This document shows, one piece after another, positions 1,997 to 38,201 of a stretch of 64,000 bases of DNA. Location: assembly GCA_016185605.1 (NCBI GenBank), contig JACPNG010000015.1, forward strand, positions 7,103 through 71,102, in the 5' to 3' direction. The DNA comes from Candidatus Woesearchaeota archaeon. Its GTDB lineage: Archaea > Nanobdellota > Nanobdellia > SCGC-AAA011-G17 > JACPNG01. Numbering within the stretch: position 1 is the stretch's first letter; every line of letters starts with the position of its first letter. The position numbers and the translations under genes are program-made. Under the pieces are notes generated by a model. The model was not told the DNA's origin. It ran no database searches and saw only the letters and a program-made list of their open reading frames with translations.

Positions 1997-3010
1997 TTAT
2001 GGAACTAATCTATCTCTACTATTTAAATGATTCCAGACTGTGGTTTTATTTATATTTAATTCTTTCCCTATCTTTTCATAACTTAGACCTTGATTCCTTA
2101 ATTCCATCATTTTATCCTTTAATTTTATCACTTCTCTATGCGGTTTTACCCATAACTTATAACTACTAACAATCTGTTTAAGCCTATCTTTTTTACGAAT
2201 AATTGTAAAGTTTATATATTTATCAAATAACTCAATAGATTTTCTATCTTGTACACTTAAGGTATAACTTGGCAATCTCGGTTTTTTATTCTTCTTAGAA
2301 TGTATTTTTGATTCAATACCAAAACCATTTAAGAGAGCTTTAACATCTTCTAGACCATTATTATTAATGGAAAAAGCCCTTATTCTTTTGCCCACTTCAT
2401 CTACATTGCCTTCAGAATCGAAAAAGCCTTTTATAAACTGAGATTGTATCTCTAAATCAGCTCTTTTTATTCTTTCAGGAACTCTCCACTTTTTAACTCC
2501 AAATTTGCCATAACATAACAGATTTTCACAGGCCTTTATTGAACATAATCTAGTTCTTGATTGATTATTCCAGTTACTGATTTTTGGGATATGAATTTCC
2601 TTGGTTGGATTGAGTCTATAAACTTGTGATAAACTATTTCTAAACTCATTAACAAATTCCTTATCTACAGCCGATAATCCAATCTGATATACTGATTTAT
2701 TAGAGTTATAGATTAAAAAACCATCACCACATAAAACCCCCAAGATATAAGCTTTCTCTAAACTAAGTTTCTTTGAAGAATTCGGAATTTGATTTTCAAA
2801 TATTCTAATTCTTCCACTTTGAACGCCTAACTTTGCAGCCTCTTTCCTCGAACGTCTCTTTATATTTAACTTATTAAGGTGATATATTATTATAGAATGA
2901 GATTTATTTAGTTTGCTTGCTATAGAACGAGTAGATTCTCCTTTCTGATAAAGTTGTTTAAATTGCTCTATTTCTTCTTTAGCGATTGGATGACCATTCA
3001 TTTTTTTCAA
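1997..3010 (-). CDS. free-standing LAGLIDADG homing-endonuclease-like protein with N- and C-terminal HTH domains
   Basis: 337 aa. Two LAGLIDADG-type motifs (LGVLCGDGFL and IKGFFDSEGNV). HTH-like segments at both ends (STRSIASKLNKSHSIIIYHL; LSYEKIGKELNINKTTVWNHL). Confidence 0.65.
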   Translation of the reverse strand: MKKMNGHPIAKEEIEQFKQLYQKGESTRSIASKLNKSHSIIIYHLNKLNIKRRSRKEAAKLGVQSGRIRIFENQIPNSSKKLSLEKAYILGVLCGDGFLIYNSNKSVYQIGLSAVDKEFVNEFRNSLSQVYRLNPTKEIHIPKISNWNNQSRTRLCSIKACENLLCYGKFGVKKWRVPERIKRADLEIQSQFIKGFFDSEGNVDEVGKRIRAFSINNNGLEDVKALLNGFGIESKIHSKKNKKPRLPSYTLSVQDRKSIELFDKYINFTIIRKKDRLKQIVSSYKLWVKPHREVIKLKDKMMELRNQGLSYEKIGKELNINKTTVWNHLNSRDRLVP

Positions 3011-7516: not shown

Positions 7517-8044
7517 ATGATTTCTTTCATAGAGATTCTAGAGATGATTATAGTGACTCTAGCAATAGGTTACATATTTTCTGGATTCATAAAATTTCCA
7601 TTTATTTCAAATTATGAATCGCTGAGATTATCCGTATATATTGCGGCACCTGCAGTCATATTGCATGAATTGATGCATAAGTTTGTAGCTATATTCTTAG
7701 GATTAAGCGCAACATTTCATGCTTCCTATCCTGGATTAGTTTTGGGTGTTATTCTGAAATTAATGGGTTCTCCCTTGCTAATCTTAGTCCCGGGTTATGT
7801 ATCAATTCCATTTACAAATCCAGTTTATGGTGCCATAGTTGCTTTTGCTGGTCCTTTGATTAATTTAATATTATGGGGATTAGCTGCTTTAGTATTAAAA
7901 TACAATAATAAATTATCGCAGAGAAGCATGACTATACTAGCATTGACAAAAAGAATTAACATAATCTTATTCTTCTTTAATATGATACCGATTGGGCCTT
8001 TTGACGGAGCCAAAGTATTGAATGGAATTATTTCTTTATTCTAA
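7517..8044 (+). CDS. membrane metalloprotease-like protein (HExxH; M50/site-2-protease-like)
   Basis: 175 aa, about 5 TM segments. HELMH motif in a TM helix and a GPFDG motif near the C-terminus. Confidence 0.4.
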   Translation: MISFIEILEMIIVTLAIGYIFSGFIKFPFISNYESLRLSVYIAAPAVILHELMHKFVAIFLGLSATFHASYPGLVLGVILKLMGSPLLILVPGYVSIPFTNPVYGAIVAFAGPLINLILWGLAALVLKYNNKLSQRSMTILALTKRINIILFFFNMIPIGPFDGAKVLNGIISLF

Positions 8045-10268
8045 AAATAATATAATAAGTTAGAAGTATTAATATTGTGATAATTAAGTTAGAGAAAGTA
8101 AATACTGGAAATGATTCTTCTATCAAGCATGATTGCCTGGCTAATGGCCTATATTTAGATTCGCATAATAGATTATTGCCTGTATAGGTGCATTTGTTTA
8201 TATCCCTAGTTCTGTAGCCCTGCTCATTGCATTCTGTCCATAAAGCGTTTGTGCAGTCCCATTCAGCTACGCATGATGATTCTCCTGGAGCGCATCCAAA
8301 CTCATCTACATTATTTATCTCTTCTAATGGGGTATCTGGACATTTATCATTTTCATTCTTGACTCCGTCGCAATCCGAATCGTCTTCTCCACAAGCTATA
8401 ACATTCAAGAGATTAGATGTTTTTGAACTTATTCCAGAAGATGCATTGAAATAGAATTCAGGCTCTCCCTGCAATAATCCATCGTCAACATTTACTATGC
8501 TCCATGAAGATTTAGCTTTTTTATTACTGAATATTTTAGACTGCGGGTCTGGAGATACATAATCATCCTGTCCTGCTAAATCATCTTCATAAACTTTAAA
8601 ATTCACCTGTCTGCCCTCGCAATATTCATCCCCCTCAACACTTAAATCCACTAAAGAGTTGGTTGTTGCTATATTAGTTAGCCAATTGGCTTTTATAATG
8701 CTGCAACATTCTGGGTCATATTTTTTAGCTGATTTATCATTTGTGCATAAGCCATCATTTGGGTTTGGTATGCAAACTCCTTGAATATTACAAACATTTC
8801 CTTTTATACAGCTTCCTTGTAAATTTGTACATTCTCCGCATAAACAATTCTCTCCTGTATCGCATATATTATTATTTTTACAGTTATCGCAAAATCCAGA
8901 AGGCAAATCTTGGGAGCATGTCTTGCATGTCTCTCCTAATTCTAATATGCCATTGCCGCATTTAGCTGATCCTATAGAGCATCCATTGCTGTCTACTGGA
9001 CCTATTTGAGGATTAGGGCATGTAGTTGTGCATTTATCTCTGTTATCTGGAATTTTATCATTATCGCAGTCTATCTGGCATGTTTTTGTTGTTAAGGAAT
9101 CGCATATTAAGTTGCTGCTGCAGAAATCTCTATTGCCGTCACAATCTTTAATTAAGCAGCTTTCCCCTAATTCTGATTCGCATTTATTATTCTGATTATT
9201 TGGTGGATTAGGGCATTCATTTATATCTGAAATGCATTTATTGGTTGTGCCGCACCAAACTTGATTTTGAGGACATCCTTCTCCTTGTATAGAGCATCCA
9301 TTGCTGTCTACTGGACCTATTTGAGGATTAGGGCATGTAGTTGTGCATTTATCTCTGTTATCTGGAATTTTATCATTATCGCAGTCTATCTGGCATGTTT
9401 TTGTTGTTAAGGAATCGCATACTAAACTATCTGAACAAAAGTCCCTATTAGTATCGCAATCTGAGCAAGAGCAGCTTTCTTTGTTTTCTGATTCGCATAT
9501 TCCATCTTTATCGCATACAAAATTAGCTCCGCAATCTGATTTACATGTATTATCCGAGCATAAAGTTTGTCCTTGAGGACAACCCCCATCTTGCGGGGAG
9601 ACACAAGCCCAATCACTGCCAACATTCAAACATATCTGTCCTAAATTACAACCAGCATCATCTGGACATGTAAAGCAATTCTCTCCTTGATCTAGGTTAT
9701 TATCGCCGCATTCTATAATTGATTCAGTAACTTCCAGCATTGGGGGGGATGAAATTATTGATAATAATCCTGTAGATGCTGTAAAATAATATTCTGGATT
9801 TCCAATTCCGTCATTCTGAAACTCAGCTATCCAAGAGCTTTCTGCTTTGTCATTTTTAAAATTAGCATTTTCCGGATTTCTAGCAACATCATCATCAGGA
9901 TTTGGAAATAGATCATCTTCCTTTACAATAAAATTTAATAAAAGGCTATTACAAGCGGATTTTCCTGTAACAGTCAAGGTTACATTATTTCCTTTGCTTA
10001 CTTTATTAGCTGACCATAGAGCAGATACTAAACTGCAGCATTCAATATCATCTTTATCTACCCCTGTATTAGGATTAGTGTCAAACTCATATCCATTATT
10101 CACATTGCAATTGTTGTCTATATTGTCATCGCATATTTCTTTAGCTCCGGGGTATATGTTTGGATTACTATCATCACAATCTATAGGATAATCTGTAATA
10201 TAAGAATAAGAATTTAGCATATTAATTAAAATTAAGCATATTAACAAAAAAATAAACTTTTTAATCAT
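8028..10268 (-). CDS. large Cys-rich secreted surface protein with thrombospondin-type-3-like Asp/Cys repeats and a C-terminal TM anchor
   Basis: 746 aa. N-terminal signal peptide. Repeated CQIDCDNDKIPDNRDKCTTTCPNPQIGPVDSNGCSI modules (Dx[DN]xDxxxDxxDxC). C-terminal PVFTF-TM-RIKK. Confidence 0.7.
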   Translation of the reverse strand: MIKKFIFLLICLILINMLNSYSYITDYPIDCDDSNPNIYPGAKEICDDNIDNNCNVNNGYEFDTNPNTGVDKDDIECCSLVSALWSANKVSKGNNVTLTVTGKSACNSLLLNFIVKEDDLFPNPDDDVARNPENANFKNDKAESSWIAEFQNDGIGNPEYYFTASTGLLSIISSPPMLEVTESIIECGDNNLDQGENCFTCPDDAGCNLGQICLNVGSDWACVSPQDGGCPQGQTLCSDNTCKSDCGANFVCDKDGICESENKESCSCSDCDTNRDFCSDSLVCDSLTTKTCQIDCDNDKIPDNRDKCTTTCPNPQIGPVDSNGCSIQGEGCPQNQVWCGTTNKCISDINECPNPPNNQNNKCESELGESCLIKDCDGNRDFCSSNLICDSLTTKTCQIDCDNDKIPDNRDKCTTTCPNPQIGPVDSNGCSIGSAKCGNGILELGETCKTCSQDLPSGFCDNCKNNNICDTGENCLCGECTNLQGSCIKGNVCNIQGVCIPNPNDGLCTNDKSAKKYDPECCSIIKANWLTNIATTNSLVDLSVEGDEYCEGRQVNFKVYEDDLAGQDDYVSPDPQSKIFSNKKAKSSWSIVNVDDGLLQGEPEFYFNASSGISSKTSNLLNVIACGEDDSDCDGVKNENDKCPDTPLEEINNVDEFGCAPGESSCVAEWDCTNALWTECNEQGYRTRDINKCTYTGNNLLCESKYRPLARQSCLIEESFPVFTFSNLIITILILLTYYIIFRIKK
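8973..9106. repeat. about 134-bp direct repeat, copy 1 of 2 (other copy 9288..9421), inside the 746-aa gene
   Basis: Near-identical nucleotide blocks (gagcatccattgctgtctactggacctatttgaggattagggcatgtagttgtgc...) spaced 315 bp apart. They encode the duplicated TSP3-like module. Confidence 0.8.
9288..9421. repeat. about 134-bp direct repeat, copy 2 of 2
   Basis: See copy 1. Identical over about 130 nt. Confidence 0.8.
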
Positions 10269-12283
10269 TTTATCCCTAAAATATTTCTTATCTGATTGAA
10301 TATATCAACATAATTGGTTATTGTTTTTGGCTGGCATAACTGGGCATTAGCATCTATTACTCCATCTCTGTCCCTGTCGCAAATCTCATTTACTTGGTTA
10401 TTGCAGTTTTCATCAACTAAATTTCCTAAATCGCAGCATTCTGATTTTCCAGGATTTACATTGGCATTATTATCATTGCAGTCATTATCACATTGTGTGT
10501 CATAACCATCATTATCATTGTCTGTTACTAAACTATTAAATTGGTTGCATGAAGCAGAACTGCATGAGCATGAATCTTGGCAGAAAGTATCTGCATTCTG
10601 ATAATCCCTATAAGTTCCAGAATAACAGCCATCTAGGTTATTGCAATTTAATTGCGGACATCCCCCTCGTGTTGGATCGCATGTAGCTCCGCATTTATCC
10701 TTTGTACATGCATAACTAAATGAGCCTTTATTCACGCATCCTGCAGAGCCACTATACTTGGTTCCGCTGCATTCATTACGCCATTCACATCTATTATCAT
10801 TACTGCATACAGAAGATGATGAATAAGAAGAGCATAATGAAGGGATTACATTAACTGTAGTTGTCTTATCTGTTCCTGATTTATATGACTTTGCTGTATC
10901 TACTGAGCATTTTATTGTTTTTGGGTTTCCAGTATATGCTCCTGCATTACAGTTAAATATTGCATTACTGCCCTGCCAGCTGCTAAATCCACAAAGATTA
11001 TTCTCAATAAAAGCACTTATGCTGTTAATATTGTCTATTGAAGAAGCGCAAGTAACTTGTATATTTGTATTTTCAACCGGATTTGAAATTGAGACTTGAA
11101 TGCTATTAACAGCAACTGGACATTGAGAATCTCCATGTTTTCCATCTATGCTGTCATAATCTGTCTCTCCATTGCAATTGTCATCTAAATAATTATTTCT
11201 GCACACTTCATTTACTCCTGGATTTACAGAAGCTGAATTATCATTGCAGTCATTTCCTCCTGATGTGCATATTGATGGAGTCCCTACTCTCTGAATATTA
11301 GAATCACAATAATTATCCTTATCATCATCGCATCCTTCATCTACTTGATTATTGCAATTATTATCTAAATTATCGCAAATTTCTGCTGTTGGAGTTCCCT
11401 GAGTAGCACTACAGCTTCCAGAGCATGTTACAGTTCCAGTCTTTTGGCATGTTCCTGTTCCAACAGTGCAAGAAGTTCCATATCCAACTGGATTAGGAGG
11501 GGTTGGTCCAGAACATTGACCATTGCATTGTATTGTTCCTCCAAATTGTCCGCATGCATTTTGATTACAATTTTGTCCGTAATTAGAGGGAAGAGCAGGA
11601 GTTGGTCCAGAACATTGCCCATTAATTTGTATTGTTCCTCCAAATTGTCCGCATGCATTTTGATTACAATTTTGTCCGTAATTAGGTGATACTCCGCATT
11701 GTCCAGAAATTAATCCATTATCTCTCCAAGAGCATCCATTACATGTTAGATAATTATTTCCACTACAACTATTCTGTCCATCAAAGCAAGAATTTCCAGA
11801 TCTTAAAACGCATTGCCCTGTACAGTCATTTAGATAACCGCAACTTCCTCCGCCGCAACTTGAGAATTTTGGAAATACTTGGGATTGTACATCTGGAATA
11901 CCAGTAATCCAAGGAATAGTCTTAACAAAAACAGTAATGTCTTGGTTTATTCTTGTACTGCAGCATATAACACTGTCTGGGCAGTCATATGTAAGTGTTA
12001 CAGGTTGATTATCTGGCACCTCTGTAAATTTGCCTCCATCATCAGCTGGTATATCTCCAAATGCCTGCACACACTCGAAATTCCCGTCCCTATCTGGCGT
12101 CCAAAAGTATCTTGGATCAGAATATCCTATAACTTGAGGAGGGGTAGCCCAGCATACTATTCTTAATAGTTCTGCTTCCGCATTATAAGGCTTAACTAAT
12201 AAAAATAATAATATAAAAGATAATAAAACAATGATATTTTTCTTATTATTGAAAAATTTAGTTTGCTGTAAACTCTTTCTCAA
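10265..12283 (-). CDS. large Cys-rich secreted protein with MopE-like putative metal-binding repeats
   Basis: 672 aa. Signal peptide. Tandem NYGQNCNQNACGQFGGTIQxNGQCSGPTP repeats. C-terminal CNDNNANVNPGKSECCDxGNxVDENCNNQVNE resembles the MopE-type motif. ATGA overlap with the downstream gene. Confidence 0.7.
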   Translation of the reverse strand: MRKSLQQTKFFNNKKNIIVLLSFILLFLLVKPYNAEAELLRIVCWATPPQVIGYSDPRYFWTPDRDGNFECVQAFGDIPADDGGKFTEVPDNQPVTLTYDCPDSVICCSTRINQDITVFVKTIPWITGIPDVQSQVFPKFSSCGGGSCGYLNDCTGQCVLRSGNSCFDGQNSCSGNNYLTCNGCSWRDNGLISGQCGVSPNYGQNCNQNACGQFGGTIQINGQCSGPTPALPSNYGQNCNQNACGQFGGTIQCNGQCSGPTPPNPVGYGTSCTVGTGTCQKTGTVTCSGSCSATQGTPTAEICDNLDNNCNNQVDEGCDDDKDNYCDSNIQRVGTPSICTSGGNDCNDNSASVNPGVNEVCRNNYLDDNCNGETDYDSIDGKHGDSQCPVAVNSIQVSISNPVENTNIQVTCASSIDNINSISAFIENNLCGFSSWQGSNAIFNCNAGAYTGNPKTIKCSVDTAKSYKSGTDKTTTVNVIPSLCSSYSSSSVCSNDNRCEWRNECSGTKYSGSAGCVNKGSFSYACTKDKCGATCDPTRGGCPQLNCNNLDGCYSGTYRDYQNADTFCQDSCSCSSASCNQFNSLVTDNDNDGYDTQCDNDCNDNNANVNPGKSECCDLGNLVDENCNNQVNEICDRDRDGVIDANAQLCQPKTITNYVDIFNQIRNILGIK
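11501..11690. repeat. tandem about 99-bp repeat (2 copies) inside the 672-aa gene
   Basis: ggtccagaacattg(a/c)ccatt...ttgtattgttcctccaaattgtccgcatgcattttgattacaattttgtccgtaatta occurs twice with a 99-nt period. Track ORFs 11428..11658(-) and 11444..11689(+) are frames of this repeat. Confidence 0.75.
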
Positions 12284-12968
12284 ATTTTATCATCTCCAGC
12301 TTATAGATATTAAATGCCACATCTTTCCAGCAGTTTTCGTCAAATCTTTTTAAGATTGGATAATTTTTCTTTAGTTTTAGACAAAGATTTCCTAAAGCTT
12401 CTTCATAACTCCAGTTATTTGAGAGCATTACAACTGTTGAATAAGTAGCTTCTTTTCTATCCAAGGTTGCTAATCTTATGTAATCTTCTCCTAAATTAAT
12501 CTCTTTTTCCATACTATCTAATGACTTATCCCTTATCAATTGCTTACTTTCCACAATAGAGATATGTACTTTCAGATTTTCTAATTCCTCATTTTGAATT
12601 CCATTTCTTTGTAGTTTTTTATAATCTTTATCTTGAGTAGCCCCAATTGCCGCTGTTATTACATTGTTTATAATATCTCTGCTACTTCCAATATAAGAAC
12701 CAACTCCAGCACTATTATACTCTAAATTTACAAAAACTTCATTATTATAATTTGATAACTTTGAATGTGGTGGTTCAATTAATCTTTTATTTTCATTAAT
12801 GGATACTTTTATTGATCTGTATGCTAAATCTAATAGATATTCTTTGTCTTTGCTACTTAATCTTAATTCTTCAGGATTAGACTTTTGAAATTTAAACATA
12901 AGAATGGACGAGCCGATAACTAAGATTATTATTAAAACAACTAATATTGTAATTCCTCTTCTTTCCAT
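12258..12968 (-). CDS. N-terminally membrane-anchored hypothetical protein, first gene of the Cys-rich-protein operon
   Basis: 236 aa. TM helix at residues 7-27. Its 3' end overlaps the 672-aa gene start. Confidence 0.45.
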   Translation of the reverse strand: MERRGITILVVLIIILVIGSSILMFKFQKSNPEELRLSSKDKEYLLDLAYRSIKVSINENKRLIEPPHSKLSNYNNEVFVNLEYNSAGVGSYIGSSRDIINNVITAAIGATQDKDYKKLQRNGIQNEELENLKVHISIVESKQLIRDKSLDSMEKEINLGEDYIRLATLDRKEATYSTVVMLSNNWSYEEALGNLCLKLKKNYPILKRFDENCWKDVAFNIYKLEMIKFEKEFTAN

Positions 12969-13599
12969 AAAAGAATGATATATTTATATTATTTAAATAT
13001 AACTAATATAGAATATAGGTTGGATTTCTTTAGTATGATATAAATATAATTTTTAAAGAATAACAAATAAAACCAAGCATTATATAACTAAAAGCTCCAA
13101 TCCTTCCTGGAGATTGTATAATTTGTACACTTAAATGAAATAATAACCCTATCAATAAAACAAAGAGTCTTATTTTGCTAATCCACAATCCTTTTTAAGA
13201 TATTCTTCCATTAGATTTATTTATGACTGGCTAGTTGGAATGGCATTTTATTTTTTAGTTTTGATATATCTTAATTAGGAAGTTTACAACTTTATTAGCA
13301 TGCCATTTATCAAATTCCCATAATACATTTTACATTTACTCTATTTCTAAAATATTTTAATTGATCTAAAAATTGAACATCTTTTTCATTAAAGTTGAGT
13401 TTATTATGTAAGAGGTTTTTGCCTTGTATGCAATATCATAATCCAAAACCTCGGCTCTTAGATTTTATATTAGTATCTCTAATTTTATAACATGATTTCT
13501 CAAATATTAGATAAATAGTTCTTGAATTTTGAGGATTTAGCTATATTTATGAAGAATTTAGCTGTGGTTTTTGAAATTAAGTAAATTAGAGATTTACTC

Positions 13600-14679
13600 T
13601 TAGAATTGGACTCCAGGATTCTCCTTTTGATAGAATGATTTTAACATTGGATGTGGAAAAGGCAACATTGCTATAAATGGTTGTTTTGAGGTATATGCTT
13701 CCGCTTTCAGCCATTCTGAATATAAGAATGATCCTGGAAGATGATTATATATCCCCCCTTCATTTGGGTGTTTTTGTGAGACTAATACTCTTAAATAATC
13801 CCTATAATCAATTGGATTTTTTCTCTTAGACAATAATTGTTCTCTTACTATATTATCAACTTCAGCTTCTTTTAATCTTTGATCAAGAGTAGAAAGTGTT
13901 TTCTGAAGATATTCTCCTCTCCAATTTAAAGGCACAATCTCTGTCTTTGTGTCCCAATAAACTGGACGACCACCATCAACGCCGAGTTTAAATGGGTCAA
14001 AACCAGGGGGGATTGACTTCTTATCTTTGACTTGATAAATCTGAAAATGAAGTTGCTCTGGTTGTAGTTCTGTATTAATATATCCACTATTCCCAGATAA
14101 TGCAATGACATCGCTTAAATTGATAGATAGATCTTTCTTCTTAATTATTCTTTTAGATAAATGGACATATGAACTTCTATATGTGCCATCACCATACTCA
14201 TCTTCGTGTGACAACCTTATTTTTTTTCCCCCCTGATAACTTTCATGAACACTTCTTATAAATCCTCTATTTGTTGGGACAACTGGTGTCCCTGTCGGAA
14301 CTTCATAATCCACAGCTCCAAATCCTTTATTCCATGATCCTGATGCATGCTCATTAAAATCTATGTAACGACCCCTCCAGTAAAGGAGTGAAGGTCCCCT
14401 AATTAAGTCTTGAGTCATTAAATAAGATTCCCAATGTCTATCTGCTATATAATTTAAACTATCTTTTCCCCCACATCCATTAAGCCATAAAAATGTCCAT
14501 CCCGCTAAACCAGCGGCATATTTTAGAAATCTTCTTCTTTCAGTGGAAAATATAGGAAGGTTATTTTTAAATTTACTTAGCTCCGCAATGCCTCCTTCGA
14601 CCAATCTTGAGTCTCTAACTCTATTTTCAATTTCACCAGATACCCCAACTTGTTTTTTCATCTTTCTGAGAAGTCGCAT
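13600..14679 (-). CDS. M23-family (LytM/lysostaphin-like) metallopeptidase with Tat signal and lipobox
   Basis: 359 aa. ERRRFLKYAAGLAGW twin-arginine motif followed by WLNGCGG lipobox. M23 core: GAVDYEVPTGTPVVPTNRGFI...SSYVHLS...IALSGNSGYINTELQPEQLHFQI. Confidence 0.7.
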   Translation of the reverse strand: MRLLRKMKKQVGVSGEIENRVRDSRLVEGGIAELSKFKNNLPIFSTERRRFLKYAAGLAGWTFLWLNGCGGKDSLNYIADRHWESYLMTQDLIRGPSLLYWRGRYIDFNEHASGSWNKGFGAVDYEVPTGTPVVPTNRGFIRSVHESYQGGKKIRLSHEDEYGDGTYRSSYVHLSKRIIKKKDLSINLSDVIALSGNSGYINTELQPEQLHFQIYQVKDKKSIPPGFDPFKLGVDGGRPVYWDTKTEIVPLNWRGEYLQKTLSTLDQRLKEAEVDNIVREQLLSKRKNPIDYRDYLRVLVSQKHPNEGGIYNHLPGSFLYSEWLKAEAYTSKQPFIAMLPFPHPMLKSFYQKENPGVQF

Positions 14680-14720
14680 TGCCTTATAAATCTTTCTTAC
14701 TTAAAAGAGACAACGTTTTA

Positions 14721-14996
14721 TTATTCACCAGAATCCGCCCCATCATCACTACCATCGTCATCGTCGTCATCTCCGGGACCAGGACCACCATCATCTCCAC
14801 CACCAGGATTATAATAAGGATCAGAACTACTCTGAGAATTATATGTAACTGTTATTAGTTTATTTTTAAAAGTGACAATTAAATTAGAGCTTTGTGCTAT
14901 AATATTTTTTATATTGAATATAACTAATAATAAGATAAGAATAACAACAGCTATTATTACATAACTAAGCTTTAGATTCTTAAACCTCTTTTTCAT
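14721..14996 (-). CDS. small TM protein with Gly/Asp-rich C-terminal tail
   Basis: 91 aa, N-terminal TM, then GGGDDGGPGPGDDDDDDGSDDGADSGE. Confidence 0.35.
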   Translation of the reverse strand: MKKRFKNLKLSYVIIAVVILILLLVIFNIKNIIAQSSNLIVTFKNKLITVTYNSQSSSDPYYNPGGGDDGGPGPGDDDDDDGSDDGADSGE

Positions 14997-15088
14997 ATAA
15001 AATAATAAAATATTGATTTATATAAAGTTAATCATTAGTTTTTCAGTATAAACAAAACCTTTTTATAAAATTAGTAAAATAAGAGACT

Positions 15089-16204
15089 ATGAAATATAAA
15101 AAATCCTTAATTTTATTTATTTTAATATTAGTACTAATAATTCTATTCTTCAAAATCAACTTCTCAATAAATGACATAAGAAATATAGAAAAAGAAGAAT
15201 TAGAAAACAGGTTAAACTTAGCAGGAGAATGGTTATTAAGAATGCAGATGTCTAACGGGAATATGGAATATGAGTATTTTCCATTAACAGATGAATACTC
15301 AAAAGAAAGAAATATGATAAGGCATACTGCCAGCCTATGGGGTTTTGGTTTATTGTATCAGAATACAAAGGATCAAAAATATTCTAATGCATTAGAAAAG
15401 GGAATTAATCTTGTATTAAATGAATATTATACAGAAGAGGATGATTTTGCATATATAAAATTCAATAATGAAGTAAACATAGGAACTTCTGGATTTATTA
15501 TTCTAGCTATGCTGAGCTCAGAAAATCCCAATAAATATAAAAATGAAATAGAAAAGCTAAAGAATTTTATAATAAGACAACAAAGGGAGGATGGAAGCTT
15601 TAAGACTTATTATCTAGAAGAAAAAGAAGACTCTGAATATTATCCTGGAGAGGCTTTATTAGCATTAATTAATCTATATGAGTATGATAAAAATGAAGAA
15701 TATCTAGATGTGTTAAATAAGGCGCTTCCTTATTATATGAATTATTTTGATGAAAATCCAAATGTAGCTATGGTGACATGGCATTCCCAGGCTTATTCTA
15801 AAGCTTTCCTAATAACAAAAAATCCAGAATATGCCAAATATGTATTTATATTAAATGACTGGGTAACTAAAAGACAGAACTTTGGGGGGGATAAACTTAT
15901 TTTGGGGGGATATGGCTCAAATCCGGGAATTTCAACTTCTGTTTACAATGAAGGAGTGAATGATGCTTTTCTAGTGGCTAAAGAATTAAATAATGAAGAT
16001 AAAATAAAAAGATACAAATTATCAATTAAACTGGCTAATCAATTTCTACTAAAATTGCAGTCAATGGACAAAAACAATAAAAATTCATTTGGAGGATTTG
16101 GAACTAATTTAAATAATCCCAACCAGAGAATAGATCATACCCAGCATTCAATAAACTCATTGAGAAAAACAATAGAAAATTATGAATTGATATATGAGAA
16201 TTAA
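15089..16204 (+). CDS. membrane-anchored alpha/alpha-toroid-like protein (prenyltransferase/squalene-oxidase-repeat-like)
   Basis: 371 aa. N-terminal TM. QREDGSF-type repeat motif and a periodic aromatic/Gly pattern. Function unknown. Confidence 0.4.
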   Translation: MKYKKSLILFILILVLIILFFKINFSINDIRNIEKEELENRLNLAGEWLLRMQMSNGNMEYEYFPLTDEYSKERNMIRHTASLWGFGLLYQNTKDQKYSNALEKGINLVLNEYYTEEDDFAYIKFNNEVNIGTSGFIILAMLSSENPNKYKNEIEKLKNFIIRQQREDGSFKTYYLEEKEDSEYYPGEALLALINLYEYDKNEEYLDVLNKALPYYMNYFDENPNVAMVTWHSQAYSKAFLITKNPEYAKYVFILNDWVTKRQNFGGDKLILGGYGSNPGISTSVYNEGVNDAFLVAKELNNEDKIKRYKLSIKLANQFLLKLQSMDKNNKNSFGGFGTNLNNPNQRIDHTQHSINSLRKTIENYELIYEN

Positions 16205-16719
16205 GATTTAACCTTAATCTCTTTCTCAATAATGTCTATTTCTTTCTTTATTGCCCTTAAAATCCTCTCTTTATCCTCTTGTATCAATAACTCCCCGCAC
16301 TCAGGGCATCTAAAGTCATTGTCCATAGCTTCATCATATCTCATCCTTACATGCTTGTCCTTGCATAAGAAATAATTAACTTCTTTTTCCCTAGCCAATA
16401 GCTCATTTAGCTCATCTAACTTCTTCTGCTTATGGGAGATTATTAAATTCTTAGCTTCTTTGTCATTAAATGTCCAGTAATAGACATACCATCCCTTTTT
16501 CTTGTCTTTTTTTCTGGTAAATGACACCAAGCTTCTTTCTTGTAACTTATAGAACATATTTCTGACTTGGTTTATTGTTAATTTTAACTTTTCAGCTATC
16601 TTGAACTCATTTATGTTTTTCTTGCCCTTAAAGAGCTTAATTAAAGGTAATATTTCCTTCCCATAAAGCTCTTTCATCAGCTCTTCTGTCTGCCTGTCTG
16701 TCAATTTCATTATTATCAT
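16201..16719 (-). CDS. tfe: transcription factor E (TFE, TFIIE-alpha homologue)
   Basis: 172 aa. N-terminal winged helix plus C-terminal zinc ribbon (CKDKH...FRCPECGE). Confidence 0.7.
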   Translation of the reverse strand: MIIMKLTDRQTEELMKELYGKEILPLIKLFKGKKNINEFKIAEKLKLTINQVRNMFYKLQERSLVSFTRKKDKKKGWYVYYWTFNDKEAKNLIISHKQKKLDELNELLAREKEVNYFLCKDKHVRMRYDEAMDNDFRCPECGELLIQEDKERILRAIKKEIDIIEKEIKVKS

Positions 16720-16879
16720 ATCTTAGTACAAAATTTAAATAACTTTGCTTTTGGCATATAATCTTACTTATGTTAAAAATATATTAATTTTTCTGAAAAC
16801 ATCTATCTTATTATAAAGATAATATAAAGATATGAATAATAGCAGTTAACTATTTAAATAAAAAAATACATTAATCAGC

Positions 16880-17074
16880 ATGGCTATTGAAACACAAAAA
16901 TATATGGATGATTTGGATTTATTTCAGAGAAAAATAGGAATAATAGTTGGAGCCAAAACAAAAAATAGAGACAAAATAGCTAATTCTATTAAAATGCAGG
17001 ACTCTATAAGGTTAAAGATTAAACATTGGGCTGGTTCCAAAGAGATTAAAAAATGGAGACAAAAGAGGAACTGA
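16880..17074 (+). CDS. putative antitoxin (VapB-like) upstream of the PIN toxin
   Basis: 64-aa ORF overlapping the start of the PIN gene by 22 nt. Confidence 0.4.
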   Translation: MAIETQKYMDDLDLFQRKIGIIVGAKTKNRDKIANSIKMQDSIRLKIKHWAGSKEIKKWRQKRN

Positions 17075-17490
17075 ACAAATATTATGTTTTAGACAGTTCA
17101 GTTGTCATAAAGTGGTTTTCTAATGAAGAACACACAGATATTGCCCTTAAGTTAAGAGATATGTTTGTCATGGGTGATATTGAAATAGTTGTTCCGGATT
17201 TACAGATATATGAGATAGCAAACGCCCTAAGATACAATAAACAAATAGAAAGAACAGATGTTGATAATGCAGTTAAAAGCCTAATAGAAATTGGAATAAA
17301 GGTTATATCTCCTAAAAGAGAAATTATGAAAAAGGCCATAGATTTCTCATATGATTATGACTTAACAATTTATGATTCATGCTTTATTGCCCTAGCCAAA
17401 GAACTAAATTTTGTATTTGTAACTGCTGATGAAAAGCTCTATAAGAAGATTAAGAGTTTAAATTTTGTAAAGCTTTTAAAAGATGTATAA
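17053..17490 (+). CDS. vapC: PIN-domain ribonuclease (VapC-type toxin)
   Basis: 145 aa. YVLDSSVVIKWF N-terminus, conserved acidic residues (D14, E..., D98, TAD near the C-terminus). Confidence 0.7.
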   Translation: METKEELNKYYVLDSSVVIKWFSNEEHTDIALKLRDMFVMGDIEIVVPDLQIYEIANALRYNKQIERTDVDNAVKSLIEIGIKVISPKREIMKKAIDFSYDYDLTIYDSCFIALAKELNFVFVTADEKLYKKIKSLNFVKLLKDV

Positions 17491-24414: not shown

Positions 24415-24501
24415 GGGCCTGTAACTCAGTTTGGATAGAGTGTCAGCCTTCTAAACAATGAAGTGAGCTGAAAGTCCGGGGTTCAAATCCTCGCAGGCCC
24501 G
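24415..24501 (+). tRNA. tRNA-Arg (anticodon UCU) with a short (about 12-nt) intron adjacent to the anticodon loop
   Basis: Acceptor GGGCCTG/CAGGCCC. D-arm ACTC-AGTTTGGATA-GAGT. Anticodon stem TCAGC/GCTGA with loop CTTCTAA plus inserted acaatgaagtga (CTTC/GAAG pairing suggests a relaxed BHB). T-arm CGGGG-TTCAAAT-CCTCG. No encoded CCA. Confidence 0.75.
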
Positions 24502-24982: not shown

Positions 24983-26923
24983 TTAAGGTTTCTTAGGCAA
25001 AAATACTAGCTTTAGCACATATAATACAATTAAGATGGCAACCACATCTGCCACTATCCAGAATGCTGTATTTCCGCCAAGATTGCTTAAATCTATTCCT
25101 ATTCCTTTAGATTCCTCTCCTAATTCAAACACAACAGTTTCAGTAGCTACAACCTCATTATTATGTTTAAGCTCTAATAATGCTGTTTTCCTTCCTGTTT
25201 CTCCTTCCCTAGCTTCCAACAATAAAAATATTGTGCTTGATTGTCCAGAATCCAACGTCAAAGTCTTAGAGTCAACTGGATTTGCCCAGCTGGCATCTAA
25301 GTCTAGTACAAGGCTTAATATATTATTAGCATTGTTTGTTATCTTTACTGGAATGCTGAATGAGTTTTCCTTGGCTACTATTTCATCTTCGTTAACACTT
25401 AACCCAACATCGGGCAATGAAACTACTTGTCCTTTGCATTGAACAACTATATTTCCAAATATCCCTTTCTTCTCATCTCCGTCATCAAAATATACAATAG
25501 CTTCCAAGTCATGTGTCTTATCCTCTGCATCACTAGGAATATTAAATACAAAATTCTTTGTTAAATCATCTCCCTTGTCCAAGTCAAAGCTGTTTGATCT
25601 TTGATCTATTTTTAATGCAGTGCTCTTTAAGTCTATGTAAACTCCATCTTCATCCCTGTTTCCTATGTTTACAACACTAATATCAACACTTACGCTTTCT
25701 CCACAGCTTACTGTAGAAGGATTGACTAAAATCTCATCTATTACAACATCGTGGTCATTTTTCTCTATATCTATTTCTATACTTTCCTCATTACAGTTTT
25801 GGTCTTCATCTCCGTCTTCATATGCTTTAATAAATATAGTATAGTCATGATCCTCATCTAAGTCAGGATCTTGTGGTATTTTTAATTCCAATGTAAAGTC
25901 TTCCTCATCATCATCATTTATATTTATGCTGTCGCTTTCTACTGTTGTAATTTCATCATTATCATCCAAATCATATAAAAATGCCTCTACAACAACATCC
26001 ATATCTTTGTCATCTTCATTATTTACAGTTACATCAATATCTACTGTGTCTCCCAAATTATATTCATCTCCGTCATCTGGGTCATTTACGTCTATTTGCA
26101 GTAATGCCTGGCTTCTTGAGCTAGGATCTCCATCTTTTACTATTCCATCCTTACATACCTCTGGCTGTATTCTGACTTCTAGATTAAATGTGTCTGTTTT
26201 AGTATTATCATTAGGATTTTTTACAGTTATTAATCCAGTATAAGTATCCAAGTCAATTCCGTCTTCTATTACAGCTGTTAATGTTATTGTGTCTGTCTCT
26301 CCTGGATTGACTGCATTAAAATCTTTGAATGTCAATGCTACTGTGTCATTATCATCATCTGAAAAGTCGCTTTGGGTATATGTTATTAATGAGTTTGTTA
26401 GTGTAAATGCATTGCTTCCTGTGTTTTTTACATCAAATGTTACTGTTTTTGTCTCATCTTCCTGGCTTGTTATAGTTAAAGGATTAGATGAATTGTCATA
26501 TGTCTGGACATCCAAAGCATGAATGCTTTGAACAGTTACAGAATATGGAAATGTATGATTATTAGCTGCTTCATTTCCAGATTCATTGGCATATATTGAT
26601 CCTGAATAAGTTCCAGCTAAAATAGTTGGAATTACAACATTAAATGATGTTATTTGTGGAGTCGCATTAGCTAAATTTGTTATACTTGGTATGGAAGGTG
26701 GTGTAATAGTATTTGAACCTGATATTAAATTAGAACTTTGTAATATTATTGTTAGTATGGGTCCAGCAACTACTGCGTTTTCAACAGTTGCATTAATCTG
26801 TACTGTGTCTCCTGGGTTCCCGCTTGGGCTTGTAACAGCTGCTATATTAACTTGACCAATAGCACTAACTAAACCAACTAAAAAAATTATGAAAAATATG
26901 TTTAAACCGATAAATTTATTCAT
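24983..26923 (-). CDS. acidic cell-surface protein with signal peptide, CARDB/Ig-like beta-rich repeats and a C-terminal TM anchor
   Basis: 646 aa. N-terminal signal. T/S/D-rich beta-strand-type sequence. C-terminal FWIVADVVAILIVLYVLKLVFLPKKP. Confidence 0.6.
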   Translation of the reverse strand: MNKFIGLNIFFIIFLVGLVSAIGQVNIAAVTSPSGNPGDTVQINATVENAVVAGPILTIILQSSNLISGSNTITPPSIPSITNLANATPQITSFNVVIPTILAGTYSGSIYANESGNEAANNHTFPYSVTVQSIHALDVQTYDNSSNPLTITSQEDETKTVTFDVKNTGSNAFTLTNSLITYTQSDFSDDDNDTVALTFKDFNAVNPGETDTITLTAVIEDGIDLDTYTGLITVKNPNDNTKTDTFNLEVRIQPEVCKDGIVKDGDPSSRSQALLQIDVNDPDDGDEYNLGDTVDIDVTVNNEDDKDMDVVVEAFLYDLDDNDEITTVESDSININDDDEEDFTLELKIPQDPDLDEDHDYTIFIKAYEDGDEDQNCNEESIEIDIEKNDHDVVIDEILVNPSTVSCGESVSVDISVVNIGNRDEDGVYIDLKSTALKIDQRSNSFDLDKGDDLTKNFVFNIPSDAEDKTHDLEAIVYFDDGDEKKGIFGNIVVQCKGQVVSLPDVGLSVNEDEIVAKENSFSIPVKITNNANNILSLVLDLDASWANPVDSKTLTLDSGQSSTIFLLLEAREGETGRKTALLELKHNNEVVATETVVFELGEESKGIGIDLSNLGGNTAFWIVADVVAILIVLYVLKLVFLPKKP

Positions 26924-29138: not shown

Positions 29139-29672
29139 ATGAATTATCAGAAAAGCCTTGTTATAAGGATAATCACAGCATTAATGATTTTTATAATTCC
29201 TTATGAGATTATTAACTTTATATTATTAAAAATGACATTATATGGCTCTTATCCCTTATTGCTCCTGAATTACAATCCTTTAATGATAAATAATGGATTT
29301 GTTATAAATAACTCAATATTAAAGATAATATCTGCCTGTGTAGCCACATCAGCTTATTACTTGTTATTCATACTGATAATATCAACAAAGGACATTAAAT
29401 TAAAAGATTCAGTAAACTTGTTTTTGATTGGATCATTTTTAATTTTATTGGCCAATATTATAAGGATTGACATCTTGATTTATATTTTCCTGGAATTTGG
29501 AAAAAATTTGTTTGAAAAAATTCATATTATATTATGGCAGTTCTTGTCAAGCATCTATGTGGCATTAGTCTGGATATTTTTAACCAGAAAATTCAAGATA
29601 AAAAATATTCCAATCTATAGTGATATTAACCATTTATTAAAAATAATAAAGAAATCAAAAAAGAGAAAATAA
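29139..29672 (+). CDS. archaeosortase/exosortase-like membrane protein (short form)
   Basis: 177 aa polytopic protein. A conserved-looking Cys (IISACVATSAYY) and ANIIRIDI (N..R) are arranged as in exosortase/archaeosortase active sites. Confidence 0.4.
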   Translation: MNYQKSLVIRIITALMIFIIPYEIINFILLKMTLYGSYPLLLLNYNPLMINNGFVINNSILKIISACVATSAYYLLFILIISTKDIKLKDSVNLFLIGSFLILLANIIRIDILIYIFLEFGKNLFEKIHIILWQFLSSIYVALVWIFLTRKFKIKNIPIYSDINHLLKIIKKSKKRK

Positions 29673-34594: not shown

Positions 34595-35539
34595 GGCTCT
34601 GGTGCAATCCCAATATTTAAGTAGTATAGAGGCATTAGCCCCCTTAATTTTATAAGGTTATTAACAAAAAGGAAGGTGATGCCCCTATGGCTAATGAAGA
34701 GTATGAAGACTACTTAAAGTTTATTGATTGTGCATTGGAGATTTCTAATAATATTCCCAGATACTTTTCCAAGTATTCCAATAAGATTTATTGCAATCAT
34801 CAGAAACTAGCAATATATATACTGATGCAGAAGATGAGAAGGACCTACAGGGGGATTATATCATGGTTAAAATCCAATAATGATGCATGCCTATATCTGG
34901 GAATATGCAAAATTCCAGTACATACAACCATAGTAAGGTTTGCCAAGAGAATCAGCAAATATCTTCATTTAATATTAGACATAAGAAAAGCGGATAGTGT
35001 TGCTGTTGATTCCACTGGATTTGAATTAGAATCAAAAAGCTATTACTACAGAAAAATGCAGTATTCTAAGGATAAACAGAGAGCAAAGAGGTTTATGAAG
35101 CTGAGTATAGTTGCTGATATAGATAAACAGCTTATACTTGATTATAGGATTAGAAGGGATTACAAGAGATGCAACACAGAGTTTAGAAGCATGATTAAGG
35201 ATATGGACATTAATTATGTCATAGCTGACAAGGGATATGACTCTTATGACAACAGGAATTTTGTGATAAGGAAGCTAAAAGCAATTCCTATTATCCCAGT
35301 AAGAAATTATACAAATTACTATGGCTATCTAAAGGGCAGAAGGATTAAAGGGGATAAATATCATCAGAGAAGCAAAATAGAAAGCATATTCTCCTCTATT
35401 AAGAGAAAATACGGCTCTGTAATTAGATCAAGAAGTTTTATATCACAAAAGACAGAGCTTATAGCTAAGCTCATAGCATACAATATAGACAGGAAGATTA
35501 GCTATTTACTATTTATTATCAGAGGGTTGCACCAGAACC
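34595..35539 (+). mobile_element. insertion sequence (IS4/IS5-type DDE transposase) with imperfect 16-17-bp terminal inverted repeats and 8-bp target-site duplication
   Basis: IRL GGCTCTGGTGCAATCCC (34595..34611). IRR GGGTTGCACCAGAACC (35524..35539), 15/17 identical with one indel. Flanking direct repeat TTGTTTGG at 34587..34594 and 35540..35547. Confidence 0.7.
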
Positions 35540-35559
35540 TTGTTTGGATATTTTCGTAA
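34687..35559 (+). CDS. DDE transposase (IS4/IS5 family)
   Basis: 290 aa. AVDSTGFE...VIADKGYDS...KIESIF DDE triad pattern. The ORF reads 20 nt past the IS right end. Confidence 0.75.
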   Translation: MANEEYEDYLKFIDCALEISNNIPRYFSKYSNKIYCNHQKLAIYILMQKMRRTYRGIISWLKSNNDACLYLGICKIPVHTTIVRFAKRISKYLHLILDIRKADSVAVDSTGFELESKSYYYRKMQYSKDKQRAKRFMKLSIVADIDKQLILDYRIRRDYKRCNTEFRSMIKDMDINYVIADKGYDSYDNRNFVIRKLKAIPIIPVRNYTNYYGYLKGRRIKGDKYHQRSKIESIFSSIKRKYGSVIRSRSFISQKTELIAKLIAYNIDRKISYLLFIIRGLHQNLVWIFS

Positions 35560-36995: not shown

Positions 36996-38201
36996 TTATT
37001 CCTCCTCGTCCTCATCTTCGTCTTCTACTTCGTCTTCATCCTCTACTTCATCATCGTCATCCTCGTCATCATCTTCCAATTCATCCTCTCCATCTTCTTC
37101 TTTTATCTGTTTTACAATCTCTTTTAATATTTCATTTGCCTCTTTTAACAATTCCTTGGCATCTTTTACTAATTCTCTTGATTTTTCAACACTAAACTCT
37201 GTCTCTGTATTTAATGTGTCTTTTGCTTCCTCGAATTTTTTCTTTGCCTCATCTAATTTTGCATTAAACTCAGCTATTAAACTATCAATTTCGGTTGTAT
37301 CAATCCCTTGTTCTGTTAATTTATTTACAGCATTCTCTAATCTTGTCTCTAATTTCTTGCTCTTTAGTATAACCCCCCCAATCCTTGAATTGTCTAATCT
37401 GTCTGAGATGTTTTTTATTCTTATCTTTGTGGTCTTCCAGGCTGCATTAATCTTTCTTGAAGCCATAGCAACCTCTTTTCCAGTCTTTGCTGCCTGTAAT
37501 TCTAATTTGGCTTGTTCAATCTCTTTTATTTTTGTATCAACAGCTTCTATTAGTTTATTTGACTCTTCTTCTGACAATCCCTCATTTCCTTCTATCTTTT
37601 CCTTTACCTTGTTTAGATGGGCTATTATGGCGTCAGCTGATTTTCCTAAATGCTCCTTTGCTGCATTAATTAATTCTTCTTTTGCTTGCTCGCAATCATC
37701 TATACATTCTTCTTTTGCTTTCCTGGCTTTTTCGAATTTTTCCTTATTTTCCAGATGAAGCTTCTTTGCTTCCTCAAATTTTTCTCTGGCTTCCAAGAAA
37801 TTTTCTTTTGCTTTTTCTAATCTTATTTTATTTAATGCCCTTGCTTTAAATTCAAACTCTTCTTTAAACTCCTTGAATTTATCTTCTCTCTTTATCTTAT
37901 CAAGCTCTTCTAATTTTTCTAATCTTCTCTTTACAACTAATTCAAGCCTTTCCTTTGCTTTTTCAGGAAGATTTTCTTTTCTCTGGTCAAATTCCTGTAA
38001 AATCCTTTCTTTACGGTCTTTAATTTCTGTTTTTATTGTTGTTCTTGTATCATCATTTTTTACTTCTGTTCTTTCTTCTGTTTTTGCTTCTGAATCTCCT
38101 TCATTAGAATCAGAACCCTCATCAGCTATTGCTAATGGAACACTAAATAATAATAACATTACAAAAAATAAGCTTATTATCTTCCTCATTTTTACCTCCA
38201 A
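36996..38201 (-). CDS. secreted coiled-coil protein with poly-acidic C-terminus
   Basis: 401 aa. Signal peptide, K/E coiled coil, C-terminal DDDEDDDDEVEDEDEVEDEDEDEEE. Confidence 0.5.
   Translation of the reverse strand: MEVKMRKIISLFFVMLLLFSVPLAIADEGSDSNEGDSEAKTEERTEVKNDDTRTTIKTEIKDRKERILQEFDQRKENLPEKAKERLELVVKRRLEKLEELDKIKREDKFKEFKEEFEFKARALNKIRLEKAKENFLEAREKFEEAKKLHLENKEKFEKARKAKEECIDDCEQAKEELINAAKEHLGKSADAIIAHLNKVKEKIEGNEGLSEEESNKLIEAVDTKIKEIEQAKLELQAAKTGKEVAMASRKINAAWKTTKIRIKNISDRLDNSRIGGVILKSKKLETRLENAVNKLTEQGIDTTEIDSLIAEFNAKLDEAKKKFEEAKDTLNTETEFSVEKSRELVKDAKELLKEANEILKEIVKQIKEEDGEDELEDDDEDDDDEVEDEDEVEDEDEDEEE

Follow-up and report, generated by a model that had tools for sequence, protein, structure and literature searches.

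Probable module shuffling in the repeats of a conserved operon for predicted cysteine-rich surface proteins of Woesearchaeota

The evolution of surface proteins through repeats is well known, and DPANN archaea live attached to other cells by machinery of which, to our knowledge, almost nothing has been described. The copper protein MopE of Methylococcus owes its high-affinity Cu(I) site to His132, His203 and a tryptophan-derived kynurenine, and the N-terminal 46 residues of MopE* are invisible in the crystal (PMC3423442). For the AMMECR1 family, Balaji and Aravind called the cysteine of the RGChG motif (nearly) absolutely conserved and proposed RGChG together with DxRa as the likely active site (PMC2034487). 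Motifs or folds of both families meet in the three-gene operon described here (genes C236, B672 and A746), which lies in a 64,000-nucleotide stretch of DNA, hereafter the window, from a tiny groundwater archaeon of Candidatus Woesearchaeota (assembly GCA_016185605.1, contig JACPNG010000015.1, positions 7,103 to 71,102). An earlier reading of the bare letters, made without database searches (the sequence-only reading), had taken the three genes as an operon for Cys-rich surface proteins built from very recently duplicated modules.

Overall, we find it reasonably likely that this operon, conserved in a small lineage of Woesearchaeota (DPANN), exports disulfide-rich, probably Ca2+-stabilised modular surface proteins whose repeats arose by module shuffling. 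On this reading the repeats are traces left by recombination as it shuffles modules in rapidly evolving surface proteins, and not a switch.

The operon and its conservation

The genes, taken from the list of open reading frames (ORFs), and the region upstream of them are as follows.

12258-12968, minus strand: C236, first gene of the operon
10265-12283, minus strand: B672, with a TTG start
8028-10268, minus strand: A746, identical to NCBI MBI2667748.1 / HYX17_03165
12969..13010, minus strand: AT-rich stretch upstream of the operon; TATA-like box TTTAAATA some 24 nt ahead of the C236 ATG (sequence inspection)

All three products match proteins of a Candidatus Woesearchaeota metagenome-assembled genome (MAG) with 100% identity. 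The C236 and B672 genes share 26 nt (12258-12283), and the stop codon of B672 overlaps the start codon of A746 in a 4-nt ATGA (10265-10268). GGAG stands 9 nt ahead of the TTG start of B672 and AGGGA immediately 5' of the ATG of A746, and the AT-rich stretch at 12969..13010 is a putative archaeal promoter for the whole unit. It lies at the edge of a gap of 630 bp (12969-13599), which contains no ORF of at least 60 aa in a genome that is otherwise tightly packed. At the other end an M50-peptidase gene runs convergent with A746 and overlaps its 3' end. Together with the overlaps, these two features delimit the unit on both sides and leave it internally gapless. The longest candidate within the gap is a hydrophobic 52-aa ORF with a TTG start (13030-13188, minus strand). 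A scan for sigma-70 promoters and intrinsic terminators gave no excess, but these are bacterial signals and not meaningful for an archaeon.

Three related genomes, L004, L084 and L087/L088, keep the same C-B-A cluster in synteny. In L004 it encodes C229, B461 and A542, and both the TTG start and the 26-nt overlap are kept; in L084 (GCA_016185615.1) the order M23 ... C229-B438-A542-M50-Nre is fully that of the window. L087 and L088, two contigs from one sequencing run (SRR22388032), represent the closest relative, at 79-81% nucleotide identity. The overlaps and this recurrence bear out the sequence-only reading that the three genes form an operon. In marine relatives (L001-L003) the M50-Nre anchor is retained beside a different set of Cys-rich genes, consisting of a MopE378, an A538, an unrelated 167-aa transmembrane protein and a B-like 408-aa protein; one more A paralogue (518 aa) lies some 4.6 kb away. 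Judged by these marine relatives, the site next to M50-Nre seems to be a conserved location where surface-protein genes vary. The A and B genes themselves differ by whole modules between genomes that are about 75-80% identical in nucleotides. Literature searches on MopE in DPANN, on cysteine-rich DPANN proteins and on Woesearchaeota surface proteins found nothing on proteins of this kind.

Repeats and their origin

The repeats and the segment that holds the longer pair are listed here; each 105-aa module begins with a variable, Cys-rich half, called 'a' or 'b', and ends with a TSP3-like half, 'T'.

8962..9600, minus strand: lineage-specific insertion in A746, residues ~223-436, with 30 Cys and two 105-aa modules
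9288..9421, minus strand: 134-bp exact repeat, copy 1, T half of module 1, A746 residues ~283-327 (CDSLTTKTCQIDCDNDKIPDNRDKCTTTCPNPQIGPVDSNGCSI)
8973..9106, minus strand: 134-bp exact repeat, copy 2, T half of module 2, A746 residues ~388-432
11490..11685, minus strand: 99-bp (33-aa) tandem repeat, B672 residues ~200-265, NYGQNCNQNACGQFGGTIQxNGQCSGPTP twice

The two 134-bp copies are 100% identical in nucleotides up to the first mismatch at 9107, exactly as the sequence-only reading had it, and their starts lie 315 bp or 105 codons apart, in frame. The next 78 nt beside the tract are only about 63% identical (derived from 86.3% over 212 nt), so that chance identity over 134 nt is negligible (~0.63^134). 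The tandem repeat in B672, which had been placed at 11501..11690, was found at 11490-11685, where 1.9 copies are 92-94% identical and share an exact core of 63 bp. Comparison of copy number across relatives, proposed with the same reading, showed the 99-bp unit to be single-copy in L004, L084 and L087 (alignment of the B proteins) and the ~640-bp segment of A746 to be absent from its orthologues and from L088.

That the segment at 8962-9600 is a lineage-specific insertion follows from its absence both in orthologues and in the closest relative. Five A746 orthologues of 518-542 aa (55-73% identity) can be aligned along their full length but are missing residues ~224-434, and L088 aligns to window positions 11020-9601 and 8961-6109, which leaves 8962-9600 (639 bp) as extra sequence in the window. 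The insertion adds 16+14 Cys to A746. The two-module block was found in just one other protein, P0007 (MBI2667310.1, 1065 aa), whose architecture is otherwise unrelated to that of A746, though it has both module types in the same order. The insert and the P0007 block are 66% identical. The accession of P0007 lies 438 numbers from that of A746, which makes it a probable paralogue from a different contig of the same MAG.

Comparison of the two proteins separates the histories of the two halves. Within A746 the variable halves a and b are 55% identical, whereas between A746 and P0007 the b halves reach 92% and the first 19 residues of a 95%. Conversely, the T halves are most alike within a gene: T1 and T2 of A746 are 98% identical as protein and 100% as nucleotides over 134 bp, those of P0007 are 86% identical, and T halves compared between the two proteins reach only 71-76%. 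Variable halves thus cluster by position and T halves by gene, a pattern of concerted evolution. At the edge of the tract, the 13 codons just before it contain seven synonymous-only differences and are followed by 44 identical codons. These synonymous differences and the diverged flanks argue for an old duplication with recent intragenic gene conversion, and not for a fresh 315-bp copy; to judge from the alignments, the 134-bp identity is a gene-conversion tract within an older module duplication.

The arrays in the two proteins also differ in phase. That of P0007 (residues ~286-498) is circularly permuted relative to that of A746 (229-434), each comprising two periods of ~101-105 aa, and the breakpoints differ: ..SDCG| on both sides in P0007, |GCPQ.. 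and ..|CGNG in A746. The permutation and the differing breakpoints suggest that both arrays may have been cut from a longer tandem array. Such a parental array was not found in any database searched. A search of species-representative genome contigs with P0007 returned only distant MopE proteins, the source MAG being absent from that set, and a search of metagenome contigs with back-translated DND[KN]IPDNRD gave only a generic bacterial TSP3-array protein and no further copies of the module.

We suggest that the A gene of this lineage received a copy of a block of about 640 bp, in which two 105-aa modules had already diverged, and that the source of the block may have been an array of the kind still present in the non-orthologous P0007. 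Intragenic gene conversion afterwards would have made the TSP3-like halves identical, giving the 134-bp tract, while the 33-aa unit of B672 would have been duplicated in tandem and other modules gained or lost among close relatives.

Other origins of the repeats have to be weighed against this course of events. A very recent duplication of whole modules with ongoing copy-number or phase variation, as the sequence-only reading proposed, would account for 134 bp of complete identity recurring in frame after 315 bp and for a 99-bp unit doubled in this lineage only, and RadA-type recombination between the 134-bp copies would be expected to delete one module in frame. Yet a fresh 315-bp copy would be identical throughout, while outside the tract the copies fall to about 63% in nucleotides and 55% in amino acids, synonymous differences stand at the tract edge, and both diverged module types are kept in P0007. 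Nor were any simple-sequence tracts, invertible segments or frame-shifting repeats seen, the repeats being long and in frame. We therefore regard this origin as improbable: the duplication of the 134-bp pair was not very recent, and of the earlier suggestion of recombination with phase variation, recombination was the right class of explanation, whereas phase variation finds no support, no switch-like feature having been seen. Collapse, expansion or chimerism in a short-read assembly is more improbable still, even though the 134-bp repeat is close to read length and no second assembly spans either repeat. An independent Logan assembly (contig L089, run SRR12113424) is 100% identical to window positions 11656-17141 and breaks at 11656, precisely at the start of the exact core of the 99-bp repeat; identity up to the repeat and a stop at its core are what a true repeat leads one to expect of a de Bruijn assembler. 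Both repeats are moreover in frame and leave the Cys count even, the flanks of the 134-bp copies are unique and differ from each other, and the order of the modules mirrors that in the independent P0007. A chimera with P0007 itself is ruled out by the insert being only 66% identical. Diversity-generating retroelements (DGRs) are common in surface proteins of DPANN and Candidate Phyla Radiation (CPR) organisms, and lengths of ~100-134 bp resemble their pairs of template and variable repeats. The type of organism and the surface-protein target would fit such an element, but the 134-bp copies are identical and both coding, the mismatches of the 99-bp pair are not adenine-specific, and no reverse transcriptase appeared among 27 window ORFs scanned with Pfam or NCBIfam (about 35 more ORFs of at least 100 aa were left out), so that we hold a DGR to be extremely unlikely.

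The three proteins and the genes around them

The hydropathy profiles agree with the sequence-only reading of a 236-aa anchored, a 672-aa secreted and a 746-aa anchored protein. Its description of all three as Cys-rich stands for A746 (746 aa, 69 Cys, 9.2%) and B672 (672 aa, 60 Cys, 8.9%), the only Cys-rich ORFs in the window, and fails for C236 with 2 Cys (0.8%). The mature Cys counts of A746 and B672 (68 and 60) are even and hence compatible with full disulfide pairing. A746 has an N-terminal signal and a C-terminal helix (residues 718-746); B672 has the signal peptide but lacks an anchor, and its C-terminal tail (..IRxxLGIK) is conserved. Outside the insertion, A746 contains the following parts.

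10098..10184, minus strand: single MopE-like motif, residues 29-57 (regular-expression match)
9723..10049, minus strand: immunoglobulin (Ig)-like beta-sandwich domain 1, residues 74-182 (family alignment and domain profile)
8388..8720, minus strand: Ig-like beta-sandwich domain 2, residues 517-627 (confident model and fold match)
8292..8381, minus strand: TSP3/OmpA-linker-like unit DSDCDGVKNENDKCPDTPLEEINNVDEFGC, residues 630-659 (invariant columns in orthologues; regular expression)
8031..8120, minus strand: C-terminal tripartite tail of FPVFT motif, hydrophobic helix and RIKK, residues 717-746

No Pfam family matches A746 even at E<=10, and single-sequence searches of the PDB with A746, B672 and C236 returned no significant match. 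Both motifs that the sequence-only reading had named do occur, with DCDNDKIPDNRDKC units at A746 residues 295 and 400, within the identical blocks, and CNDN..VNPG at B672 residues 346 and 602. The label 'TSP3-like' can be kept for the Asp/Cys motif and a sub-threshold NCBIfam match, but not as membership of Pfam TSP_3 (PF02412), which matches neither A746 nor B672 even at E<=10. A strict canonical regular expression for the TSP3 Asp ladder has 0 matches in A746, a relaxed one matches at residues 295, 400 and 630, and the invariant DSDCDGVKNENDKCP...VDEFGC unit weakly resembles the TSP3-like linker of PA1041-type OmpA anchors (NF053612 over residues 630-659, E=9e-4, 19 bits, far below its cut-off). 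Units of the form CG[DN]..E..C, CGDNNLDQGENC at residue 187 and CGNGILELGETC at residue 437, were found by regular expression and are without a match to Pfam DUF4215/PF13948.

An AlphaFold2 model of full-length A746 from 6 sequences has a mean pLDDT (the predicted local confidence score) of 48.8 and is usable only for the two sandwich domains, of which domain 1 reaches about 70-82; a single domain was therefore remodelled. For domain 2 this gave a confident model with a strong structural match to Ig-like beta-sandwich folds. A family of 1418 representatives (E<=1e-3) shares this sandwich domain and its conserved signature, C..W...EDD...W...PEYYF; single proteins reach 5231 aa and carry 1-6 copies. 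Pfam-A covers the domain neither in A746 nor in any of the eight family members scanned, in which it co-occurs with DUF4215, MopE and Laminin_G_3. Annotators thus gain an Ig-like domain family of more than 1400 cluster representatives that lies outside Pfam. Many members (for example P0010 and P0167-P0303) end in CPAQ[IV]xLPFFG followed by a hydrophobic helix and an extended stretch of Lys/Arg, and Px[FY][GSTEN] occurs within the last 60 aa of 38/150 family members against 6/144 MopE-hit controls. None of the curated CTERM sorting models (PGF, PEF, PACE and others) matches the A746 tail, though the tripartite shape is present, and two relatives give no more than a sub-threshold Heimdall-CTERM match; the shared tripartite tail may be an undescribed sorting signal. 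The window does encode a pacearchaeosortase (29139-29672, plus strand; NCBIfam NF033505, 114.6 bits against a cut-off of 80) and, about 2 kb away, a 646-aa PACE-CTERM putative S-layer protein (24983-26923, minus strand; NF033506, 239.8 bits against 110), presumed to be sorting enzyme and substrate. The tail of the latter, ..GGNTAFWIVADVV..LPKKP, is unlike the FPVFT tail of A746.

B672 (MBI2667749.1, 'putative metal-binding motif-containing protein' in NCBI) carries these units.

11159..11386, minus strand: MopE-type (PF11617) Cys/Asp units, residues ~300-375 (Pfam, alignment and regular expression)
10490..11197, minus strand: ~235-aa block, residues ~363-598 (approximate coordinates, from alignments)
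10349..10498, minus strand: C-terminal MopE-type unit CNDNNANVNPG..., residues ~596-645 (Pfam and regular expression)

Its match to Pfam PF11617 Cu-binding_MopE reaches 46 bits in three stretches, against a gathering threshold of 27, which upholds the earlier assignment of MopE-like modules for B672. In A746 itself the Pfam scan has no such match, although its orthologues carry a precomputed one, and the single motif of A746 matches MopE (2VOV) weakly by phmmer (E=0.27). The MopE unit at B672 residues ~303-362 is missing in the closest relative, L087. The ~235-aa block, a predicted beta-rich segment (Ig-like by eye) followed by a Cys-rich one and without a Pfam match, occurs in the window protein and in the relative from SRR22388032, whereas L004 and L084 lack it.

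C236, named 'AMMECR1 domain-containing protein' by NCBI, is no Cys-rich module protein, as had been thought, but has an AMMECR1 fold, with its 2 Cys at residues 196 and 213. It scores 38.3 bits against Pfam AMMECR1 (PF01871; cut-off 25) and 45 bits against NCBIfam TIGR00296, below the cut-off of 91, and a profile of its family aligns to PH0010 of Pyrococcus horikoshii (1VAJ) at E=1.1e-3, in an alignment of about 130 residues that takes in the C-terminal CW..Y..F motif. Among 5.8 billion proteins, a word-indexed search turned up just three homologues in addition to C236 itself. None of five family members has a Cys before residue ~196, and the RGChG position reads GSYIG, GSYLG or KSYIS; the DxRa motif is likewise missing, the DPRF of PH0010 aligning to residues that are unconserved or deleted in the C236 family. 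One very hydrophobic N-terminal segment (residues ~5-25) forms a transmembrane anchor, and flank charges favour an N-in/C-out orientation in 3/4 C236 homologues. With the cysteine of the predicted active site and DxRa both missing, C236 is probably a non-catalytic AMMECR1-fold protein, and it probably faces outward. Neither a Memo-like dioxygenase nor a radical-SAM activase lies adjacent in any of the four genomes, where the operon neighbours are the M23 peptidase and Cys-rich proteins; radical-SAM genes do lie outside the operon in L004 and L084, 4.7 and 4.7-5.6 kb away.

The immediate neighbourhood is extracytoplasmic in character. Beyond the 630-bp gap, which in L084 is occupied by a small Gly/Asp-rich gene, the operon is adjoined by an M23 peptidase with a twin-arginine-like signal, RRRFLKY (13600-14679, minus strand), and then by a small Gly/Asp-rich secreted protein of 91 aa (14721-14996, minus strand), whose N-terminal half (..IIAQSSNLIVTFKNK..) is conserved and whose low-complexity Gly/Asp/Ser tail varies in length and composition, the protein measuring 119 aa in L084 and 135 aa in L087. 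On the other side lies the M50 gene (7517-8044, plus strand), which encodes a small 175-aa membrane protein like site-2 proteases, overlaps A746 convergently by 17 nt, and is a neighbour of the Cys-rich genes in all relatives, even in the marine ones with their different gene order. An archaeal Nre gene is adjacent as well. The GC content, about 30% in the window, rises to 36% at 8-12 kb; horizontal transfer was considered as the cause and not adopted, since Cys/Gly/Asp-rich coding explains the difference.

Elsewhere in the window, a giant 2410-aa secreted protein (55324-62556, minus strand) ends in an SLT lytic transglycosylase domain (77 bits), and L084 has an SLT+LysM protein beside Nre (13603-14514). 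Several murein-type hydrolases in an archaeon suggest interaction with peptidoglycan-bearing, that is bacterial, cells. A 401-aa secreted protein (36996-38201, minus strand) without a Pfam match ends in a long Asp/Glu run (..DDDEDDDDEVEDEDEVEDEDEDEEE). A third tRNA (24415-24501, plus strand; 87 nt) was found by Rfam at 55.6 bits and not reported by ARAGORN, its length suggesting an intron-containing archaeal tRNA. Mobile or selfish elements comprise a DDE transposase (PF01609, 69 bits) and two free-standing LAGLIDADG+helix-turn-helix proteins, whose coordinates are listed jointly:

34687-35559 (plus strand), 1997-3010 (minus strand) and 46764-47861 (plus strand): DDE transposase and two LAGLIDADG+helix-turn-helix genes

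Function and comparison with described systems

In the arrangement that we propose, A746 and B672 would form a disulfide-bonded, Ca2+-stabilised assembly at the cell surface, with A746 as the membrane-anchored component and B672 as its soluble partner, which its conserved ..IRxxLGIK tail may dock. C236, facing outward, would act on both as a non-enzymatic dock, partner or chaperone. By analogy with the usual role of proteins that combine Ig-like domains with Ca-binding repeats, we infer that the complex may serve attachment to a host cell or surface.

Several points weigh against the proposal of a conserved operon for disulfide-rich, module-shuffled surface proteins. The function is deduced from domain types alone. 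The Cys-rich parts fold poorly in AlphaFold (pLDDT <50), so that the disulfide and Ca2+ assignments rest on motifs, and the orientation of C236 itself is ambiguous, with flank charges of +2/+2. The copy number of both repeats comes from one short-read MAG assembly that no independent assembly confirms across either of them, and the membership of P0007 in the same MAG is inferred solely from neighbouring NCBI accession numbers.

What the proteins do could also be read in other ways. They could be structural components of the cell envelope, S-layer-associated or wall-stabilising, with no role in attachment. Structural envelope proteins are usually conserved in architecture, and gain and loss of modules at about 80% nucleotide identity is more typical of proteins of interaction and recognition; this is not decisive, and we rate a purely structural role as unlikely. 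A scavenger or binder of metal (copper) like MopE, in place of an adhesin, would agree with the Pfam match and NCBI name of B672 and with the weak likeness of A746 residues 29-57 to chain 2VOV, but it is very unlikely on the composition of the proteins: A746 has 0 His and B672 a single one, against the two His and kynurenine of the MopE site (PMC3423442), and what is shared is a motif of about 30 aa within the crystal-invisible N-terminus, not the MopE fold. Metal binding, as ascribed to these modules on their first reading, is a Pfam label only, and copper binding finds no support. Going beyond the surface assembly proposed above, one may picture a DPANN host-attachment complex with a catalytically dead AMMECR1 dock, whose binding specificity is retooled by cassette exchange through gene conversion. 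We regard this bolder version as improbable; were it true, it would amount to a cassette-based surface-variation system in an archaeal episymbiont and would give the enigmatic AMMECR1 fold its first role outside the cytoplasm.

Short of that, the locus offers a concrete and conserved candidate for attachment, with three genes predicted to be co-transcribed at a fixed chromosomal position, and a small, clean example of diversification in a reduced genome by cassette insertion, gene conversion and tandem duplication. Mildly new are only the coupling to a degenerate membrane-anchored AMMECR1-fold protein and the unannotated Ig-like family, and current views stand.

Set beside the AMMECR1 family as represented by PH0010, C236 passes the Pfam threshold and its family profile aligns with PH0010, but it has an N-terminal membrane anchor and is without the RGChG cysteine and DxRa, so that annotators gain a membrane-anchored AMMECR1-fold protein that lacks the conserved cysteine of its family. 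In contrast to AmmeMemoRadiSam systems, C236 is coupled to secreted Cys-rich proteins and has no adjacent Memo or radical-SAM gene. With TSP3 repeats and the OmpA-anchor linker, A746 shares, in relaxed form, the pattern D-x-D-x-D-(G)-x-x-D/N-x-x-D-x-C-P...G-x-x-V-D-x-x-G-C (residues 295, 400 and 630); unlike TSP3, however, its repeated copies replace Gly6 by Lys, and its units are embedded in Cys-rich modules where TSP3 forms long acidic arrays. The sandwich domains are only 3-16% identical in sequence to those of intimin/invasin, to the macroglobulin (MG) domains of alpha-2-macroglobulin and complement, and to the N-terminal domain of BtaeB, and unlike bacterial Ig-like (BIg/MG-type) adhesin domains the A746 family has a signature of its own and no Pfam model.

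The relatives of these proteins by similarity are mostly from Myxococcota, Woesearchaeota, Pacearchaeota and Patescibacteria. With the MopE-motif multi-repeat proteins of Myxococcota, CPR and DPANN, B672 has in common the CxDxDxxxxPG...CDxxDxDC units, a high content of Cys and Asp/Asn, secretion and a variable number of units. In contrast to those proteins, the motif units are a minority here and stand beside Ig-like sandwiches and a C-terminal anchor, the genes share a fixed operon with one for an AMMECR1-fold protein, and nothing ties the units to the copper site of MopE. Finally, the repeats of A746 and B672 resemble those of repeat-containing bacterial surface proteins in their length and reading frame, in the sharp edges of their identity tracts, in copy-number differences and in exchange between paralogues; the difference is that the host here is a DPANN archaeon.

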